Shown here: piece after piece, positions 24,578 through 40,298 of the stretch
Layout: each line of letters opens with the position of its first letter
Position numbering within the stretch: the first letter of the stretch is position 1
Virus record (IMG/VR): IMGVR_UViG_3300027357_000001
Reading direction: 5' to 3' (one strand)
DNA: 40,298 nucleotides
From: a virus
The notes under the pieces: model-generated
Databases searched by the model: none
Told to the model about the DNA's origin: nothing
The model's input: only the letters and a program-made list of their open reading frames with translations
Program-made: the position numbers and the translations under genes

Positions 24578-25030
24578 TCAGGGGACGAGACAGGCCGCGC
24601 GAGCACCAGGCGCCGGCAGAGGCGATGGCCGCGGCGAAGCGACAGGCGAGCACGCCGGCGGCGGCTCGCGGCCCTCCATCATGGCGCGGAGCCTCGCCTT
24701 ATCAGCGCGGGTGAGAGACCAGCCGCCAGAGCCCCATTCTGTACGAACCTCGATCCCGACTTTCTGGAGAGCGGCGCGCACCTTGACCATTTGCACGTCG
24801 ATCAGCTTGATTTCGGGCTTGTCGCACTCAGGCCGAGCGCCGAACAGCACGGTAAACATCGCCTCGCGGCCGGCGACTGCCCGCTTGAGCATGAACCCGA
24901 CCATTTCGCACTGTTGAGGCGTGGCATCGAGAACCGTCAGCAGCCGCGACACGTCGTCATCGCCGACGCCTAGCAGCGCCTCCAACTCTTGAACGCGATC
25001 TTGCAGCCTAACGGTATCGTCCAATGCCAT
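24578..25030 (-). CDS. Winged-helix (OmpR/PhoB C-terminal-like) DNA-binding protein; candidate late-gene regulator
   Basis: 150 aa. The segment LIDVQMVKVRAALQKVGIEVRTEWGSGGWSL resembles the recognition-helix/wing pattern V.VHI..LR.KL...I.TV.G.GY.L. It lies just upstream of the packaging genes. Confidence 0.6.
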   Translation of the reverse strand: MALDDTVRLQDRVQELEALLGVGDDDVSRLLTVLDATPQQCEMVGFMLKRAVAGREAMFTVLFGARPECDKPEIKLIDVQMVKVRAALQKVGIEVRTEWGSGGWSLTRADKARLRAMMEGREPPPACSPVASPRPSPLPAPGARAACLVP

Positions 25031-31652: not shown

Positions 31653-32378
31653 ATGTTTTGGAGAAACGTGGTCGAGCTTTGGCTAAAAGCCTTCGCCATG
31701 AAGGCAGGGGGACTGATCCGCGACAAACGCCGAGAGCTTGGCTGGTCTCAAAAGGACCTAGCCGAGCGCGTCGGCGTGTCGCAGGTAGCGATTATGAAGA
31801 TCGAGCGCGGGGAGACTGTGAAGTCGAAACACTTTCCGAAGATCGCCCAGCTCTTGGGGCTAGATCTCGCCCTGCTCGACCCGACACTAGTCAAAGGTCA
31901 TGTGCACACCGTAACTACCCGGGGTAGTGCACCACCCAACCGGGCGCTACAGGTCATATCTAATGAACAAATAAAAGGCAGGTATGACCTACCCGTGTAC
32001 AGCACCGCTCAAGGAGGGACAGGCGCCTTAGTCCTGTCAAACCAGCCGTTCCGGCATATCGCTCGCCCGCTCAATCTCGATGGCATCCAAGATGCCTTCG
32101 GGGTGCTGATCGTCGGCAACTCCATGGCGAAGGAGTATCGGGAGGGCGATATTGCTTATGTCGATCCCCACCTACCTCCGCGTGTTGGCGACGCCTGTCT
32201 TTTCCAATCTGAGAACCACGGAACTGTCGAAGCCGTCATCAAGTATCTCGAGAAGCCGGCGGAAAGCTCCCCCGATCTCTGGCACGTCAGCCAGTCCAAT
32301 CCAGAGAAGAAGTTCACTTTGAAAAAGGCCGAGTGGCAGAAGTGCTACGTCCTGGTCGGTAAGCAATCCGGCCGGTAA
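31653..32378 (+). CDS. CI-like repressor (XRE HTH + S24 LexA-type autopeptidase)
   Basis: N-terminal HTH: LIRDKRRELGWSQKDLAERVGVSQVAIMKIERGE. C-terminal S24 motifs: VGNSM (Ser) and IKYL (Lys). Start uncertain (ATG 31653, GTG 31668 after GGAG, or ATG 31698). Confidence 0.85.
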   Translation: MFWRNVVELWLKAFAMKAGGLIRDKRRELGWSQKDLAERVGVSQVAIMKIERGETVKSKHFPKIAQLLGLDLALLDPTLVKGHVHTVTTRGSAPPNRALQVISNEQIKGRYDLPVYSTAQGGTGALVLSNQPFRHIARPLNLDGIQDAFGVLIVGNSMAKEYREGDIAYVDPHLPPRVGDACLFQSENHGTVEAVIKYLEKPAESSPDLWHVSQSNPEKKFTLKKAEWQKCYVLVGKQSGR

Positions 32379-32400
32379 AGCGCTACTCAGAGCTGGGAAT

Positions 32401-32431
32401 GCCGGGTGCCGTAGTCTCCCGGTTCTTTTTT
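32401..32431 (+). terminator. Rho-independent terminator after the repressor gene
   Basis: Stem CCGGG/CCCGG (32402-32406 / 32418-32422) with an 11-nt loop, followed by TTCTTTTTT. Confidence 0.6.
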
Positions 32432-32454
32432 AATTGGGGCGATAACTTTTCTTA

Positions 32455-32483
32455 TTGACGATAACTAGAACATAGGTTATTAG
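32455..32483 (+). promoter_or_regulatory. PL-like early promoter with embedded operator
   Basis: TTGACG (32455-32460), 17-nt spacer, TATTAG (32478-32483). The same 10-bp element AACATAGGTT lies at 32469-32478. CGATAAC direct repeats at 32440 and 32459 flank the -35 element. Confidence 0.5.
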
Positions 32484-32510
32484 TTTTCCCATCAGCAGGG
32501 GAAACGCCCA

Positions 32511-32867
32511 ATGTCCTACTACTCGCCCAACCCGCACTACGCGCCCGCCGATTACAGCGAGGACCACGCCCGCCGCGCCGCCGCCGAATTCGAGGGAAGC
32601 CGCTGGTTCAATGACCTGACCAAGCCGCAGGCCGCCCGCCACGCCCAGCGCATGGCCGACGCCCTCCCCTACAAGGGTTCGCCCCGCTGGGAGCGCATGC
32701 GCGAGGCCGCCATGGGCGAATTCGTGGAGACCACCACGGAAGCCTCCGAGATCTGCAACATGGTCATTCGCGACATGCTGGAGACCGGCGAGGTCTCCGA
32801 AGCCACGTCCTACGCCTTCGATGAGTGCATCACCCGCCAGAACATGGCGCTGCAGGCCGCGGAGTAA
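32511..32867 (+). CDS. Hypothetical protein (118 aa), first gene of the plus-strand early operon
   Basis: Clean ORF with AGGGGAAA upstream of the ATG. Confidence 0.6.
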   Translation: MSYYSPNPHYAPADYSEDHARRAAAEFEGSRWFNDLTKPQAARHAQRMADALPYKGSPRWERMREAAMGEFVETTTEASEICNMVIRDMLETGEVSEATSYAFDECITRQNMALQAAE

Positions 32868-32872
32868 TCGTC

Positions 32873-33214
32873 ATGAAGCATTTCCGCTTTGACGTCCGCT
32901 GCGTCGACGGCCGGCTGTTCCAGCACATGCCGCAGAACGATGACCCCTATTTCGAGCGCGACATCGGCCGCTGCGAGGATTGCGACGGCGCCGGCTGCGA
33001 TCGGCTGCACCGCCAAGCTGCAGAGGCGAAGGTGGGCGACAAGATCGTGTGCACCCACGTTTTCCCGCCGATCCCGGATCGCCGCTACGACTGGCTCGCC
33101 ACGCGCGACAACGACGAGCCCGACGACAACGGGCACATGTTCCAGGGCTTCGGCCGCACCGAGCAGGATGCGATTGACGATCTTGTGGCCGTCATCGAGG
33201 ACGCGCGGGGCTGA
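32873..33214 (+). CDS. Hypothetical Cys-rich protein (113 aa)
   Basis: ATG at 32873 lies 8 nt downstream of GGAG. Translation begins MKHFRFDVRCVDG and contains CEDCDGAGCDRLH. Confidence 0.6.
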   Translation: MKHFRFDVRCVDGRLFQHMPQNDDPYFERDIGRCEDCDGAGCDRLHRQAAEAKVGDKIVCTHVFPPIPDRRYDWLATRDNDEPDDNGHMFQGFGRTEQDAIDDLVAVIEDARG

Positions 33215-33216
33215 CG

Positions 33217-33327
33217 ATGATTGATTTCCTTCACCGTCACGGTTGCGACGCGACCGATATCCGCGACCTCGCTGTCATCGCCGCTTTCGTCAGCATGGTT
33301 TTCGTTTGGTGCGCGGTGCTGGCATGA
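33217..33327 (+). CDS. Possible 36-aa membrane peptide (below ORF-track cutoff)
   Basis: Hand translation: [36 protein letters not shown]. Its stop overlaps the next ATG (ATGA 33324-33327). Confidence 0.4.
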
Positions 33328-33632
33328 GCAACAGCAACGCCGCATCCCGCGTCACCTACGAAAAGCGGACAATGGCCTATTACGACCGCTTGCCGAAATC
33401 GGTTCGATACGCAGTTGCAAACGCCAGGTTCGACTGGACGCTGAGCAAGTTGCTGCGCGCATTCGAGCGCGGCCAAGCCAGCGCCGCCGACTTGGTCGGC
33501 GCCGTCGAGCGGATGGACAAGATCGAGAGCGCCAAGACGCGCTTCCGCGCATGGGGCGGCGACTATCCGATTTTCGACGGCGAGATTTCTCACATCCCGC
33601 TCACCCGCAAGCCCCGCCGTTCCCGTCGTTAG
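33324..33632 (+). CDS. Hypothetical protein (102 aa)
   Basis: ATG at 33324 within track ORF 33243-33632. Translation begins [38 protein letters not shown]. Confidence 0.6.
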
Positions 33633-33661
33633 TCCCCTCAAACCACAACAGAGAAACCGAA

Positions 33662-34390
33662 ATGCTCGATACGATCACCAAGCAGCTTTTGAAGTTCGAT
33701 GTCCGTAACCGCTTCACTGGAGCGGTGCAATTCACGGCAGAAATCGACTGCCGCGACGATGCTTCGACCAGCATTAAGCTTGGCCTCGCGATCAAATGGG
33801 CCATCAAGAGCGGCGCGAACCTGAGCGGCGCGTACCTGAGCGGCGCGGACCTGAGCGGCGCGTACCTGAGCGGCGCGAACCTGAGCGGCGCGTACCTGAG
33901 CGGCGCGGACCTGAGCGGCGCGGACCTGAGCGGCGCGTACCTGAGCGGCGCGTACCTGAGCGGCGCGAACCTGAGCGGCGCGTACCTGAGCGGCGCGGAC
34001 CTGAGCGGCGCGGACCTGAGCGGCGCGTACCTGAGCGGCGCGTACCTGAGCGGCGCGAACCTGAGCGGCGCGTACCTGAGCGGCGCGGACCTGAGCGGCG
34101 CGTACCTGAGCGGCGCGTACCTGAGCGGCGCGTACCTGAGCGGCGCGTACCTGGGAGCCGATCAGTGGATCATCCAGGGAGCGACCCGCAGCGACGGTTA
34201 CGCCTTCTTCCTCCAGAAGCTCAAGGCAGACAAAGAGCCGATGGTGAAAGCCGGCTGCCGCTACTTCACTCTGCGCGAAGCGCAGATCCATTGGGAAAAG
34301 ACCCGCGCCGGGACGGCGCTCCTTACCGAAACCGAGACTATCGTCCGTTGCATGGTCGATCTCGCCCGCGCGCGGAAGCTGATGGATTGA
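33662..34390 (+). CDS. Pentapeptide-repeat protein (242 aa)
   Basis: ATG at 33662. Contains 23 consecutive A(N/D/Y)LSG pentapeptides, flanked by non-repetitive N-terminal (49 aa) and C-terminal (about 78 aa) domains. Confidence 0.85.
33809..34153 (+). repeat. In-frame tandem repeat, 23 x 15 bp (AGCGGCGCGNACCTG)
   Basis: The units are identical except for the first base of one codon (AAC/GAC/TAC). Unit order is N Y D Y N Y D D Y Y N Y D D Y Y N Y D Y Y Y Y, which implies a 90-bp higher-order repeat. Confidence 0.95.
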
Positions 34391-34392
34391 CC

Positions 34393-34641
34393 ATGGCATT
34401 CGAACAGCAGCGGGCGGCCGAGGCGGAAGCCGCCCGCAACACCCGAGTTGAAGGCTATGCGTCGTGGCTCGCCGACGACGTCGACGGCCTCATTCACAAC
34501 GTGGTGCCGCGCGACGGCGCGCCCTGCCAGCACTCGACCGCAATTCTCGCCGAGGCCCGCGCCCTTGTCGCGCTCGCCCTCTCGAAAATCGACCTCGCAA
34601 TCCAGCGAGACAAGGAAGCCCACAGCCAGGAGGCCGCATAA
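34393..34641 (+). CDS. Hypothetical protein (82 aa)
   Basis: ATG at 34393, 2 nt after the previous stop. Its stop abuts the erf ATG. Confidence 0.55.
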   Translation: MAFEQQRAAEAEAARNTRVEGYASWLADDVDGLIHNVVPRDGAPCQHSTAILAEARALVALALSKIDLAIQRDKEAHSQEAA

Positions 34642-35424
34642 ATGTCAGCCGAACCGCTCCCCGCCGACAACATCAAGCCGATTGCCGTCCGGCGCCCGCG
34701 CGCCGTCGCGCCGGCCGCCCCGGGCCCGCTCGATATCGTTCAAGCCGCGCTCGCGAGCGGCAACGTCGACATGTACCGCGAGGCCGTCGCGCTCATGAAG
34801 GAAATGGACGCTTTCGCGGCAAGGAAGGCGTTCCAGAACGCTCTAGCCGATGCCAAATCGGAACTGCCGATCATCCGGAAAAACCGGCACGTCAGCTACG
34901 GCGAAGGCAAGAGCGCGACCGCCTACGACCATGAGGATTTGGCCGAGGTTGTCGAAACCGTCGTGCCGATCCTCAGCAAATTCGGACTGTCTCACCGCTG
35001 GCGCACATCTGGCAAGCCCGGCGAGCCTGTCACCGTGACATGCATCATTTCGCACCGCGACGGCCATTTCGAGGAAAACTCGCTTTCGGCCGGCGCCGAT
35101 ACATCCGGAGGCAAGAACCCCATCCAGGGCGTGAAGTCGGCAGTCTCCTATCTGGAGCGCATTACGCTCATGGCTTCGCTTGGTCTCGCCTCGCGCAGCG
35201 ATGACGACGACGGACGCGGCACCACCGCCGAGCCCGCCGAATACGTCCCGCCGGCCGGATCGATCAACGCCGAACAAGTGGAATTCATCCGGGATGAACT
35301 TCGCAACAAGGGCGCCAGCGAAAAGGCATTCCTCCAATGGGCGAAGCAAAAGCGCATTGAGGACATCCCGGCAACTCACTTCGGATCCTGCGTCAACGCT
35401 CTGGCGAATTTCAAGAAGGCATAA
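34642..35424 (+). CDS. erf: ERF-family single-strand annealing protein
   Basis: 260 aa. The segment KSATAYDHEDLAEVVETVVPILSKFGLSHRWR, followed by a conserved core and an acidic tail region, fits the ERF pattern (Y..L..V...V.P.L...GL). Confidence 0.75.
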   Translation: MSAEPLPADNIKPIAVRRPRAVAPAAPGPLDIVQAALASGNVDMYREAVALMKEMDAFAARKAFQNALADAKSELPIIRKNRHVSYGEGKSATAYDHEDLAEVVETVVPILSKFGLSHRWRTSGKPGEPVTVTCIISHRDGHFEENSLSAGADTSGGKNPIQGVKSAVSYLERITLMASLGLASRSDDDDGRGTTAEPAEYVPPAGSINAEQVEFIRDELRNKGASEKAFLQWAKQKRIEDIPATHFGSCVNALANFKKA

Positions 35425-35427
35425 CCC

Positions 35428-36480
35428 ATGAACGCGATTGTTACTCTCGATAGCATTCTGGAACCCTCGCAGGCCCTCACCCCTGCCGCTCTATTCGGCA
35501 CCGGCCAGATTGAAACCATCGTTTCGGCGATCGAGAGCCAGGTTCGCGCCGAGGCCTACGACGTCACCACGCCGGAAGGCCGCGAGCGCATCAAGTCGGT
35601 TGCCTACAAAATCGCCCGGTCAAAGACGACGCTGGACGAGATCGGCAAAGAGCACGTTGCCGACATCAAGGCGAAATCGGCCGCGATCGACAAGGAGCGC
35701 AAGACGCTGCGCGATCGGCTGGACGCCCTCAAGGATGAGGTTCGCAAGCCGGTCACCGATTGGGAGCAAGCCGAGGCGAACCGCGTCAGTGGCCACGAAA
35801 ACGCGCTTGTAGTGATCATTCAGGCGCCGACCATCCTCGCCGGCAAGTCATCCGCCGAGATCAGCGCCGTCAAGGAACAGCTTGAGGCCATGGCCGGCCG
35901 GGATTGGCAGGAATTCGGCGACCGTGCCGTTGCAGCGTTCGCCGAGATCATGCCGAAGATCTGCAATATGCGCGATGCTGCCTTGCAGGCCGAGGCGGAC
36001 GCCGCAGAACTTGCCGAGCTGCGCCGGTTGAAGGCCGATCGCGAGGAAGCCGACCGCAAGGCCGCCACTGAAAAGGCTGCACGCGAAGAAGCGGCCCGCG
36101 CAGAAGAGTGGCGCCGCCAGCGCGAGGAACAGGCCCAGCGCGACCTTGAACGCGCTGTCGAGATCGCCCGCGAGGAAGAACGCCAGCGCGCCGAACAATC
36201 CCGCATCGAGGCAGAGCAGCGCGCTGAGCGCGAGAAGGCCGCCGCGATCGAGGCCGAGCGCCGCCGGCAGGAGCAGGAAGCGCGCGACGCCGCGGCAAAG
36301 AAGGCCGCCGAGGAAGCCGCCGAGCGCAAGCGCCAGGAGAACGCCAGGCACCGCGCGAAGGTGCGGGCCTCAGTTCGCGAAGCCTTCCTGAAACACACCG
36401 TGGTCGACGCCGCGGACGTCGACCGCATCATTGAGACCATCGCAAATGGCCTCATCCCCCACGTTTCCATCACCTACTGA
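35428..36480 (+). CDS. Coiled-coil protein with long Glu/Arg/Ala-rich helix (350 aa)
   Basis: Clean ORF between the annealase and exonuclease genes. About 115 aa are of ER/K-type charged-helix composition. Confidence 0.65.
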   Translation: MNAIVTLDSILEPSQALTPAALFGTGQIETIVSAIESQVRAEAYDVTTPEGRERIKSVAYKIARSKTTLDEIGKEHVADIKAKSAAIDKERKTLRDRLDALKDEVRKPVTDWEQAEANRVSGHENALVVIIQAPTILAGKSSAEISAVKEQLEAMAGRDWQEFGDRAVAAFAEIMPKICNMRDAALQAEADAAELAELRRLKADREEADRKAATEKAAREEAARAEEWRRQREEQAQRDLERAVEIAREEERQRAEQSRIEAEQRAEREKAAAIEAERRRQEQEARDAAAKKAAEEAAERKRQENARHRAKVRASVREAFLKHTVVDAADVDRIIETIANGLIPHVSITY

Positions 36481-36490
36481 GGCCAGCGCC

Positions 36491-37099
36491 GTGCAGATTT
36501 TCAACGTCGACCAGAATTCTCCCGAATGGTTCGAGGCGCGCCGCGGCATCCCGACCGCCTCGCAATTCAAAGCCATCTTGGCGAAGGGCGAAGGCAAGAG
36601 CCGCCGCGCCTACATGATGAAGCTTGCCGGCGAGATCATCAGCGGCGAGCGCATGGAGAGCTTTTCCAACGAGTACACCGAGCGCGGGCATGAGTTCGAG
36701 CCGATCTTGCGCGACCTCTATTGTTTCGAGACCGGCGCGCAGCTCGATCGCGTCGGGTTCATCCGGAACGGCCGCGTCGGTTGCTCGCCTGACAGCCTGA
36801 TCGGCACCGATGGCGGCTTGGAGATCAAGAGCCAGTCGCCGCACTTGCTCATTGAAACCATCCTCAAGGACGAATTTCCGCCAGAGCACAAGGCCCAGGT
36901 GCAGGGAACGCTTTGGGTCACCGGGCGGGAATGGTGGGACATCGCCGTAGGCTACAAGAACATGCCGCTGTTCAAGAAGCGCGCGCACCGAGACGAACGG
37001 TATATCCAGAGCCTTGCAACCGAAGTCGACCGCTTCACCGCGGAGCTTGACCAGGTTGTGGAGCAAATCCACCGTCGTGGCGAGGCGGTGGCGGCATGA
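36491..37099 (+). CDS. YqaJ-like (lambda Exo-type, PD-(D/E)XK) recombination exonuclease
   Basis: GTG at 36491. The N-terminus QNSPEWFEARRGIPTASQFKAIL is the YqaJ signature. Downstream motifs are CSPD and LEIK. Confidence 0.8.
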   Translation: MQIFNVDQNSPEWFEARRGIPTASQFKAILAKGEGKSRRAYMMKLAGEIISGERMESFSNEYTERGHEFEPILRDLYCFETGAQLDRVGFIRNGRVGCSPDSLIGTDGGLEIKSQSPHLLIETILKDEFPPEHKAQVQGTLWVTGREWWDIAVGYKNMPLFKKRAHRDERYIQSLATEVDRFTAELDQVVEQIHRRGEAVAA

Positions 37100-37464
37100 G
37101 CGCTCGCGTCGTCTCAGAAGCTGAGTTCAGAACAAGGATGCGGGTTGTTCTTTCCGACCCGCTCACCGTGACGGTCGGCTGCGTCACTGGCCCCGGCCGC
37201 AGCGGCGCCATTGCCGCCGTCTATGCTAGTCACATTCTGCGCGTGCCCTTCCTACCGTATGGGCAGAAGGCGCCGGCGGATCTCGGTCGGCTCCTGATCA
37301 TCGACACAGCCCGGGAGAGCGGCGCAACACTCCGCAAAGCGGAGCGAAAATATCTCGGCTGCACGCCTCTTGTGCTCGTGGCCTACGAGGAACCACCGCG
37401 CGTCGTCTTTTGGTACGAAGCACGCAAACCGCAGCGTTATCGCCATGAGGGACGCGCAGCATGA
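37096..37464 (+). CDS. Hypothetical protein with phosphoribosyltransferase-like motif (122 aa)
   Basis: VTGPGRSGAIAAVYASHILRVPF followed by LLIIDTARESGATLRKA resembles the type-I PRTase nucleotide/PRPP loop, but the acidic pair is degenerate. ATGA overlaps at both ends. Confidence 0.5.
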   Translation: MSARVVSEAEFRTRMRVVLSDPLTVTVGCVTGPGRSGAIAAVYASHILRVPFLPYGQKAPADLGRLLIIDTARESGATLRKAERKYLGCTPLVLVAYEEPPRVVFWYEARKPQRYRHEGRAA

Positions 37465-37910
37465 GCGGCCGCGCCCTCCTCGTTCTCTCGTCCCGCGCGA
37501 TCCGGGAAAAGGCGATTGACTGGATCATGCGCCTACCTGCCGGGACGCGCGTCGAGTTCAAGGGACCGCAACGGACCCTTGAGCAAAACGACAAGCTTTG
37601 GGCGATGTGGACCGACGTTTCATCGCAACACTGCATCGACGGGCGCCGCTACAGCCCGACCGATTGGAGGCTGATTTTCCTCACCGCCTACGCCGAAGAG
37701 ATGGGCATGGAAATCCGCCACCTACCGGCGATCCACCGCGCCGGGCTCATTCCCTGCGGTCGATCATCCTCAGACCTTTCCGTTCGCGAGGCCTCCGAGC
37801 TGATCGAATGGATGCTCGCGTGGGGCGCCGAGCAAAACCCGCCGATCGTGTGGAGCGACCCGAAGCCCGCAACCGAAGGAGCACGCAGCCGTGAAGAAGT
37901 CGGAGCATGA
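37461..37910 (+). CDS. ninB: NinB/Orf-family recombination mediator
   Basis: 149 aa. RTLEQNDKLWAMWTDVSSQ...SPTDWRLIF matches the NinB pattern R.L.QN..LWA.L.DI..Q......EDWK. Confidence 0.75.
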   Translation: MSGRALLVLSSRAIREKAIDWIMRLPAGTRVEFKGPQRTLEQNDKLWAMWTDVSSQHCIDGRRYSPTDWRLIFLTAYAEEMGMEIRHLPAIHRAGLIPCGRSSSDLSVREASELIEWMLAWGAEQNPPIVWSDPKPATEGARSREEVGA

Positions 37911-38877: not shown

Positions 38878-40248
38878 ATGGGGCGCGATAGCATCCGATA
38901 TTTCGTTTATTCGAAAGGCCGCTGGAAATGGCAGCCAACCAAGCCCATGCGCGCCCATGGCTTCGTCACCGTGAAGATGGGTCGAGGCGGTCCCGGGCTG
39001 GACAGCAAGGGCTATCCGGTCGCGAGCACCGAGGACAAAATGCGGGCGGTGGAGTTGAACGCGGCATGGGACGCCGCGCGCCTTGGCCTTCCTGCCCCAC
39101 AGAAGCCCGCAGCGACGGCCGTCAAATATCCGGCCGGGAGCGTTGGCGACGGCTATCAGCGCGCCATGGCGCTCCGGAAGGCCGGCAGACTGGCAAAAGG
39201 CATCGTCTGGACCAACGAGCAGGAAAAGCGCGATAGCTGGCCGCGCGCGTGGAAGTGGCTGGAGCCGAAATTCGCGGACTGCGATCCGCGCACGATCACG
39301 CCGGAGCATTTTCTTCGCCTTGATCCAGTGACCGGCAAACCGGCCGGGCTCGTTGTCGAGATCGAAAACAAGGTTTCCGTCACCGAGCGCTTCATGGTGA
39401 TCAAGGTGTGGCGGGCGCTGTGGAAGAAGATGGCAGGCATGGGGTATTGCGACGAGAAGGCAGACCCCGCCAAGACCTTCCCGAACACGCCGCCGAAGCC
39501 GCGCGATCAGGTCTGGTACCGGAAGGAGACATTGAAGCTCGTACAGATCGCGTGGCGGAATGGCTACTACGGCCTCTCCGCGCTCATGGCCGTTGCGTGG
39601 GACAGCCAGCTCTCGCCGATCGACACGCGAAGCCTCAACCTCGAGAAAGCACGCCTCGATAGCGTCGGCGTCTATTTCGCGCTGGACCGCGCCAAGACCG
39701 GCAGAGCGGCAGCGGCGACGCTTTCGGCCTGGTCACTGGCGATCCTGCGCGCCTATCTCAAGAAGCAATTCAACGGCGCGAAGCTGCTCGACACAACGCC
39801 CCTATTCTGGACCCGCGGCGGCCGGCCGGTGTCCCGAGATGGAACGACGGGACGGTGGGGCGGCGACCACGGCGGCGGCAAGCATGTCCCGTCGCGCCCA
39901 TACACGAAGAGTAGCGCGAACCAGGACTTTGCGGAGATACGGAAGCTGGCCTATGGGCTCAAGGAACGGCGCCAACTCCAGGACATGCGCCGATCGGGCG
40001 CCGTTGAGGGCGACGTCGGCGGGGCCACGGTCGAGGACCAAGCCAACAAGATGGCGAACACGGTCAATCGCAATGAGAAGCTGCGGGAGACCTATAACCC
40101 GGTGAACGTCGTTAGCGCCCGCCGCTTCGACCAAGCGCGCCTCATCGGGGCCAAGCTGCTGGAAGAACAAAAAGGGGCAAAAAGTATTTCAGCGACGCCC
40201 CAAGAAATACTCTTGGGAACCGAAACTTTCGCTAAGTCATTGAAATGA
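38878..40248 (+). CDS. int: Tyrosine-type site-specific integrase
   Basis: 456 aa. Catalytic-domain landmarks: DRAKTGRAAAATLS, QDMRRSGAVE and the C-terminal RETYNP (candidate Tyr). Its stop codon TGA (40246-40248) overlaps the first base of the att repeat. Confidence 0.85.
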   Translation: MGRDSIRYFVYSKGRWKWQPTKPMRAHGFVTVKMGRGGPGLDSKGYPVASTEDKMRAVELNAAWDAARLGLPAPQKPAATAVKYPAGSVGDGYQRAMALRKAGRLAKGIVWTNEQEKRDSWPRAWKWLEPKFADCDPRTITPEHFLRLDPVTGKPAGLVVEIENKVSVTERFMVIKVWRALWKKMAGMGYCDEKADPAKTFPNTPPKPRDQVWYRKETLKLVQIAWRNGYYGLSALMAVAWDSQLSPIDTRSLNLEKARLDSVGVYFALDRAKTGRAAAATLSAWSLAILRAYLKKQFNGAKLLDTTPLFWTRGGRPVSRDGTTGRWGGDHGGGKHVPSRPYTKSSANQDFAEIRKLAYGLKERRQLQDMRRSGAVEGDVGGATVEDQANKMANTVNRNEKLRETYNPVNVVSARRFDQARLIGAKLLEEQKGAKSISATPQEILLGTETFAKSLK

Positions 40249-40298
40249 CTGGCGCGAGAGACGGGACTCGAACCCGCGGCCTCCGCCGTGACAGGGCG
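40248..40298. repeat. Right att direct repeat (integrase-proximal junction)
   Basis: Identical to 1-51. It is truncated by the window edge, so the true repeat could be longer. Confidence 0.85.
40250..40298 (-). tRNA. 3' 49 nt of tRNA-Asp(GUC); the gene continues beyond the window
   Basis: The reverse complement reads CGCC-CTGTCAC-GGCGG-AGGCC-GCGGG-TTCGAGT-CCCGT-CTCTCGC-G-CCA. This gives an anticodon loop CU-GUC-AC, a 5-nt variable loop, a T arm, a 7-nt acceptor strand, discriminator G and encoded CCA. It is closely parallel to E. coli tRNA-Asp. Confidence 0.75.

Follow-up and report, generated by a model that had tools for sequence, protein, structure and literature searches.

The 40,298-nucleotide viral record IMGVR_UViG_3300027357_000001, referred to here at its full length as the window, carries on its plus strand a gene (33662-34390) for a protein of 242 amino acids plus stop, P0001. 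Its reading frame and translation, an AlphaFold2 model and a match to the Pfam Pentapeptide family (PF00805, 157.1 bits against a cut-off of 20.2, E 6.6e-47) identify it as a phage pentapeptide-repeat protein, as the initial annotation had proposed. P0001 is composed of a small N-terminal cap, an uninterrupted pentapeptide-repeat β-helix, and a conserved C-terminal domain of 78 residues. The early region is headed on the same strand by a CI-like repressor with an HTH domain and an S24 peptidase (31653-32378; PF01381, PF00717, phrog_4). This is followed by two small ORFs, a DUF6525 protein (33243-33632; PF20135, E 5.7e-10), the pentapeptide gene, an Erf single-strand annealing protein (34642-35424; PF04404, E 1.8e-17; phrog_155), a phrog_1376 gene, a YqaJ-type recombination exonuclease (36431-37099; PF09588, E 9.3e-22), a further small ORF, and a NinB/Orf recombination mediator (37461-37910; PF05772, E 1.2e-21), all on the plus strand. 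An early operon near recombination genes had been claimed for this locus, and the Erf, YqaJ exonuclease and NinB genes do adjoin. The phrog_1376 gene (35428-36480, E 1.8e-58) encodes a 350-residue protein from a family of unknown function, with a highly charged, Glu/Arg/Ala-rich second half; it is kept beside Erf in the Bradyrhizobium prophages L001, L003, L004, and L011. The ORF packed tightly between the exonuclease and NinB (37096-37464, 122 residues) had no match in Pfam or PHROGs. No Rfam RNA family was found at 32000-36000, and a strict scan around the pentapeptide gene returned no promoter and no plus-strand terminator.

The closest homologues of the Erf protein were found in Bradyrhizobium genomes. 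In L002-L004, which are syntenic Bradyrhizobium prophages, the early operon is the same but the pentapeptide gene is missing, and L003 and L004 carry the DUF6525 gene without it. Where the gene is present its position shifts: it lies before DUF6525 in L011, after NinB in L017, and between the DNA polymerase and the helicase in the Caulobacter JessA group. An obligate pairing with DUF6525 or Erf was rejected, given the different order in L011 and L017 and the absence of the gene from L002-L004. The pentapeptide gene belongs to the accessory early genes of a temperate phage infecting Bradyrhizobium-like bacteria. An exact 51-bp direct repeat is shared by positions 1-51 and 40248-40298, at either end of the window, and resembles the 3′ part of a minus-strand tRNA gene (GGGACTCGAACCC T-arm). 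ARAGORN found no complete tRNA in the window, and the repeat marks either attL/attR cores, with the prophage inserted in a tRNA gene, or the overlap of a circular contig.

The body of P0001 is encoded by a tandem array of 23 head-to-tail copies of the 15-bp unit AGCGGCGCGNACCTG (33809-34153, plus strand), translated as SGA[N/Y/D]L, or as 23 units of A[N/Y/D]LSG in the protein. In a unit-by-unit parse, 14 of the 15 columns were invariant and base 10 alone varied. This base is the first position of a NAC codon; it is T in 13 units, G in six, and A in four, giving Tyr, Asp, and Asn, respectively. Tandem Repeats Finder returned nearly the same interval (33808-34153, period 15, 23.1 copies, score 622). 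A pattern search of the window gave 23 exact unit matches where 0.09 would be expected by chance. Outside the array, the only match with one mismatch was a single isolated one at 24770-24784, so there is no second array in the window. All 92 Ser, Gly, Ala, and Leu codons of the array are AGC, GGC, GCG, and CTG, a uniformity with a probability of about 1e-37 from the codon bias of the window alone. Along the array the variable residue runs NYDY-NYDDYY-NYDDYY-NYDYYYY, such that units 5-10 and 11-16 form two exact 90-bp higher-order blocks (33869-34048), and the unit order implies an exact self-match of about 165 bp at an offset of 90 bp. The array is in the frame of the ORF at 33662-34390 and has features of an in-frame variable-number tandem repeat (VNTR), namely near-identical tandem units and a unit length that is a multiple of three. 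On all of these points the earlier description stood: direct reading, Tandem Repeats Finder, and the unit parse agree on 23 units with one variable base encoding N, D, or Y, the N Y D D Y Y order recurs as a block present twice in exact form, and the proposed construction from 90-bp blocks fits the single variant found, P0002, which is short by exactly one block.

The AlphaFold2 model of P0001, built with 33 homologues, had a mean pLDDT of 89. The N-terminal cap (49 residues, 33662-33808; matches to phrog_31265 and phrog_31567) is modelled as a β-hairpin with strands at residues 9-16 and 22-29, followed by a helix at 36-49. The same cap is found in Caulobacter JessA-type proteins, where it is joined to a different C-terminal domain. 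The predicted solenoid spans residues 56-163 and is perfectly regular, with one short strand for every five residues; the C-terminal unit occupies residues 169-237. Foldseek matched the solenoid body to 2j8k (E 2e-11), Np275/276, 2f3l, designed consensus solenoids, and Rfr23 (2o6w), the last with an rmsd of 0.6 Å over 92 columns; the nearest solved chains by sequence were designed 'beta1' solenoids. The model and these matches support a right-handed quadrilateral β-helix with four units per coil, the fold that had been anticipated from the DNA alone, here likewise as a prediction. The best array matches in both sequence and structure are to the cyanobacterial Rfr proteins (Np275/Np276, Rfr23, HetL) and to designed solenoids (the beta1 series, 4yc5, 5dra). 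In regularity the window array equals a designed consensus repeat. The Rfr proteins and designed solenoids lack the terminal domains of P0001 and any phage link.

The C-terminal domain (78 residues, 34154-34387) was delimited by alignment, model, and profile search, and is predicted to consist of four strands and two helices (pLDDT 93.9 when modelled alone). An alignment of 18 homologues showed 28 invariant columns over the last 78 residues, with the signature RSDG[YH]xF...AGCRxFT...HW...R.GT.LG.E. Searches of Pfam, NCBIfam, and PHROGs with the domain alone returned no family, no PDB entry reached E ≤ 0.001 in Foldseek, and the best Z of a wide VIA-align search (5.2) was at background level. 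A profile search of 1.84 billion representative proteins retrieved 498 clusters with the domain at E ≤ 0.001. Among the 150 matches listed of these 498 clusters, it stands at or near the C-terminus of proteins of 61-336 residues. About 100 of the top 147 cluster matches carry pentapeptide arrays, and the remainder have YdcK-type or hexapeptide solenoids (PF18836, PF00132) or no solenoid. Structure searches of BFVD and the ESM Atlas gave the same picture, and the clusters are almost all viral. In this wider set RSDG, F, AGCR, A, HW, R, T, L, and E remain near-invariant. A polar signature of this kind would be more usual at an active or binding site than in a simple cap, and the Asp, Cys, and His that hardly vary may together make up a catalytic or ligand-binding site.

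It had been claimed that the length of the array would differ between isolates, and a comparison of relatives showed that repeat number does vary; invariance across isolates was not seen. P0002, from ENA assemblies (in one of them on a 534-kb contig), is identical to P0001 at both ends and exactly 30 residues shorter, which corresponds to six units, the length of one 90-bp block. The pair P0017 and P0018 also has common ends, and their lengths (230 and 255 residues) are five units apart. In the Caulobacter phages RapA and JessA the 2 kb flanking the gene on either side are 100% identical, but RapA encodes 277 residues with 28 units and JessA 242 residues with 21 units; BL94, with 98% flank identity to this pair, has 23 units in another order. 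Two isolates of a single species, the phages RW and GB2A, are separated by a few bases and a 375-bp deletion in the pentapeptide gene (PMC11053796); their genes measure 1071 and 696 nt, with 47 and 22 units. Among Salmonella homologues of gp60 of Vibrio phage 24, 45 cluster representatives with identical first 20 and last 60 residues range from 165 to 220 residues in 5-residue steps. These copy-number comparisons come mostly from assemblies, and any single pair may be miscounted. Taken together, the sequences indicate that the VNTR reading holds for the family and probably also for the window locus. An exact 45-nt search of viral contigs with the 5′ junction of the array found no match, and a search of metagenomes with a degenerate pattern, designed on the conserved beginning of the C-terminal domain just 3′ of the array, found no further contig. 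No paper was found on repeat-number variation in phage pentapeptide genes as such; the array-plus-domain design recurs widely in phages, and the mentions of it found in the literature are incidental only.

The reliability of the count must be considered. The window contig is listed under JGI/IMG and 'gem', the latter taken to mean a metagenome-assembled genome catalogue, and it contains an exact repeat of about 165 bp at a 90-bp offset, longer than the usual assembly k-mers; for these reasons the count of 23 units in the window is not secure. It is quite possible, though on balance doubtful, that the array itself is real while its 23 units and the NYDDYY duplication were produced by short-read assembly, the 17- and 23-unit forms then being one allele. 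Five of 16 related viral contigs stop inside the array (L012, L013, L015, L018, and L023, all IMG/VR), as several Ralstonia phage records start within it (MT740747, MT740725, and MT740735), and the gene is truncated or unannotated at such ends. The authors of the Vibrio phage 24 study resolved its array with PCR and Sanger sequencing (bioRxiv 10.1101/2024.07.02.601686). The array looks like a systematic assembly breakpoint, and the 17- versus 23-unit difference could be biological or the result of collapse. The array design is family-wide, however, and cannot be an artefact, and in RapA/JessA/BL94 and P0017/P0018 the differences in length are accompanied by differences in unit order, for which simple collapse is insufficient. 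Because short-read assemblies break or miscount at such arrays, the pentapeptide gene is often cut short or incorrect in phage and prophage records.

A recent turnover of the array had been proposed from its DNA-level identity. This is borne out by codon usage in 15 homologous arrays of at least seven units, taken from a Bradyrhizobium MAG and IMG/VR contigs, as well as by the near-identical genomes with other repeat numbers described above. Unit counts in the 15 arrays range from seven to 28. Each array uses one Ala codon and one Leu codon, with at most one exception in any array, while lineages differ in their Leu codon (CTG, CTC, or CTT) and Gly codon (GGC, GGA, or GGT). Uniformity within arrays together with difference between lineages is, judged from these codons, concerted evolution, and no single assembly could have produced it as an artefact. 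Base 10 is polymorphic in 16 of 16 arrays and encodes the i-1 residue (N, D, or Y, and H in one relative), whereas the codons for the inward-facing Ala and Leu are essentially invariant even synonymously. Within-array alleles in 16 arrays comprised 69 non-synonymous and seven synonymous changes where 26% synonymous would be expected (binomial p 2e-4), a test that is indicative only, as the arrays are related and uniform mutation is assumed. On this pattern, heterogeneity seems to be maintained at the exposed surface and purged from the core. In the family the unit counts take every value modulo 4, so the end domains need no fixed mutual orientation, and the six-unit block is out of phase with the four-unit coil; both observations would argue against a precisely patterned surface. 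Single-stranded folding of the array DNA gave z -0.63, that is, no special hairpin propensity, which gives hairpin-driven slippage no advantage over plain misalignment of repeats as an explanation. A diversity-generating retroelement target was rejected, as there is no second array or template in the window and the variable base is A, T, or G, and in relatives C; the A next to the variable base never varies in any of the arrays.

The interpretation that we favour, and consider reasonably probable, is that the window carries an accessory early gene whose three-part product is built on a self-homogenising in-frame minisatellite and contacts a host factor or defence system rather than mimicking DNA. 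Either slipped-strand mispairing or unequal recombination, acting on the 15-bp units and the 90-bp blocks, would gain and lose units faster than point mutations accumulate, and such turnover would leave one codon set per lineage and a drifting repeat number. The phage's own Erf/YqaJ annealing system may aid this process. Within the protein family, the C-terminal domain appears to be the constant part and the helix surface the evolving part. If the array is indeed a mutable specificity surface, it would offer phages a simple and widespread route to vary their counter-defence, and it would also be a natural scaffold of tunable length.

The sole experimental precedent found in the literature is gp60 (24_60) of Vibrio phage 24. 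Deletion of 24_60 renders this phage highly sensitive to the RexAB-like system Sucellos, and six escaper phages have the substitutions Y112R and N115D within the 24_60 repeats (bioRxiv 10.1101/2024.07.02.601686). The N to D change is of the same kind as the A/G toggle at base 10 in the window. Like the window protein, gp60 (KJ572844, 12900-13322) is an accessory early pentapeptide protein with a DNA-homogeneous 15-bp array (93% matches in Tandem Repeats Finder) and a small C-terminal domain, but it has a different N-terminus, a gammaproteobacterial host, and basic repeats (R/Y). In the Vibrio phage 24 annotation, the gene neighbours are tied to the consecutive CP-T1 genes 0015/0016 and the pentapeptide gene only to a Salmonella protein, which suggests that the related phage CP-T1 lacks this gene. 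BLASTP aligned gp60 and the window protein over the repeats and a short AGC motif, and the C-terminal motif common to the two is only V[KR]AGC[RQ]xxT. A comparison of the C-terminal domains with hhalign gave probabilities of 13.5% and 57% over 14-16 columns only; gp60 is therefore taken as a working analogue and not as a family member. The GenBank version of gp60 (L032) has 140 residues and eight units, while the published escaper mutations are numbered 110-115 within the repeats, so the array of the laboratory stock or of a corrected gp60 must be much longer than in the record. By analogy with gp60 acting against Sucellos, P0001 would work through protein-protein contact with a host factor or defence system, and this is the most likely role for an accessory early protein that combines a constant C-terminal module with a fast-evolving solenoid.

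Other cultured phages show the same layout. In a tblastn search the only cultured-phage records with the C-terminal domain of the window protein were gp016 of the Caulobacter phages RW, RLK, KcrB, and GB2A, annotated as 'pentapeptide repeat family protein', and gp1 of EBPR siphovirus 2. All of these share the cap, the pentapeptide array, and the RSDGY...AGCR domain. The domain in these relatives is only 36-48% identical to that of the window protein, however; they are acidic (pI 4.6-4.9), belong to virulent phages that infect another host, and are without a known function. Although RW and GB2A are 25 units apart, no difference in host range was seen among the tested strains (PMC11053796), and length may thus not matter for function.

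This last result would fit another explanation, in which the helix is a neutral slippery spacer that does no more than link the C-terminal domain rigidly or stabilise it; repeat number and surface residues would drift without adaptive value, and the instability would be a mutational by-product. Such a spacer would also account for the tolerance of unit counts from seven to 47 with all values modulo 4, and for the occurrence of the C-terminal domain without any solenoid as well. We nevertheless regard it as unlikely. Arrays persist across a range of lineages and hosts, the gp60/JessA group (for which C-terminal kinship is unproven) among them, despite an expected deletion bias of tandem repeats, and variation within arrays is strongly skewed to amino-acid changes at exposed positions. 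In Vibrio phage 24, moreover, the gain-of-function changes map to the repeats (bioRxiv 10.1101/2024.07.02.601686).

Early pentapeptide genes are common in phages and are usually annotated as DNA mimics by analogy with Qnr. A tunable mimic aimed at host nucleases, gyrase, or defence systems had been called conceivable for P0001. On such a reading the β-helix would imitate B-DNA, as in Qnr, MfpA, McbG, and AlbG, and block gyrase, RecBCD, or a DNA-sensing defence, with repeat number setting the length of the mimic. The mimic proteins share the fold predicted for P0001, with MfpA, QnrB1, AlbG, and EfsQnr also among the Foldseek matches, and recombination genes adjoin the pentapeptide gene. Lambda gam and P22 abc lie beside recombination genes as well. 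Some relatives are acidic, such as the RW protein with a pI of 4.6 and an array charge of -14. P0001 itself, however, is near-neutral (net charge -1, pI 5.9, with six Asp against 13 Tyr in the array), and its nearest orthologue, L011, whose C-terminal domain is 92% identical, has a pI of 9.6 and an array charge of +6; L020 and L024 are basic too. Array charge in the family thus runs from -14 (RW) to +6 (L011 and L024), and a sequence-level test of P0001 and its relatives found no conserved anionic DNA-like surface. The Qnr model scored 39.1 bits against a cut-off of 240 and the MfpA model 51.6 against 360, and the uninterrupted array leaves no place for the Qnr loops. What is conserved in the family is the C-terminal domain and not the helix surface, and this domain also stands behind hexapeptide and YdcK-type solenoids, which are not DNA-like. 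For P0001 the mimic is accordingly a weak idea, and we consider it very improbable, although acidic members of the family might conceivably have such a role. The window protein shares with Qnr, MfpA, McbG, and AlbG the quadrilateral β-helix and the A(D/N)LXX repeats, but differs from Qnr and MfpA in the absence of loops and of a conserved acidic surface, in its C-terminus, and in its phage early-operon context. The arrays of Qnr and MfpA proteins are degenerate at the DNA level. The mimic annotation is called into question here by three results: the unconserved charge of the helix, the location of the conserved element in a C-terminal domain that lies outside Pfam and NCBIfam, and concerted turnover with variation concentrated at exposed residues.

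A parallel at the DNA level may be drawn with bacterial in-frame VNTRs and contingency loci, which like the window array have near-identical in-frame units and change copy number between otherwise identical genomes. Since every length stays in frame, the window gene has no on/off phase switching, and its repeat builds a folded solenoid rather than a disordered linker. More tentatively, phages may possess a large modular class of early proteins in which a constant C-terminal domain is combined with interchangeable, self-homogenising β-solenoid arrays of pentapeptide, YdcK-type, or hexapeptide repeats, these arrays acting as hypervariable contingency surfaces that retarget the protein against fast-evolving defence sensors. 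As a class, such proteins have apparently not been described so far. In P0142, P0157, P0194, P0199, and P0216, the C-terminal domain stands behind very regular hexapeptide or YdcK-type repeats, an example being many copies of YGNAWVSGNARV, and these proteins have their own conserved N-terminal domain (KYEFTGETKV...GGWIE); their repeats may be length-variable in DNA too.
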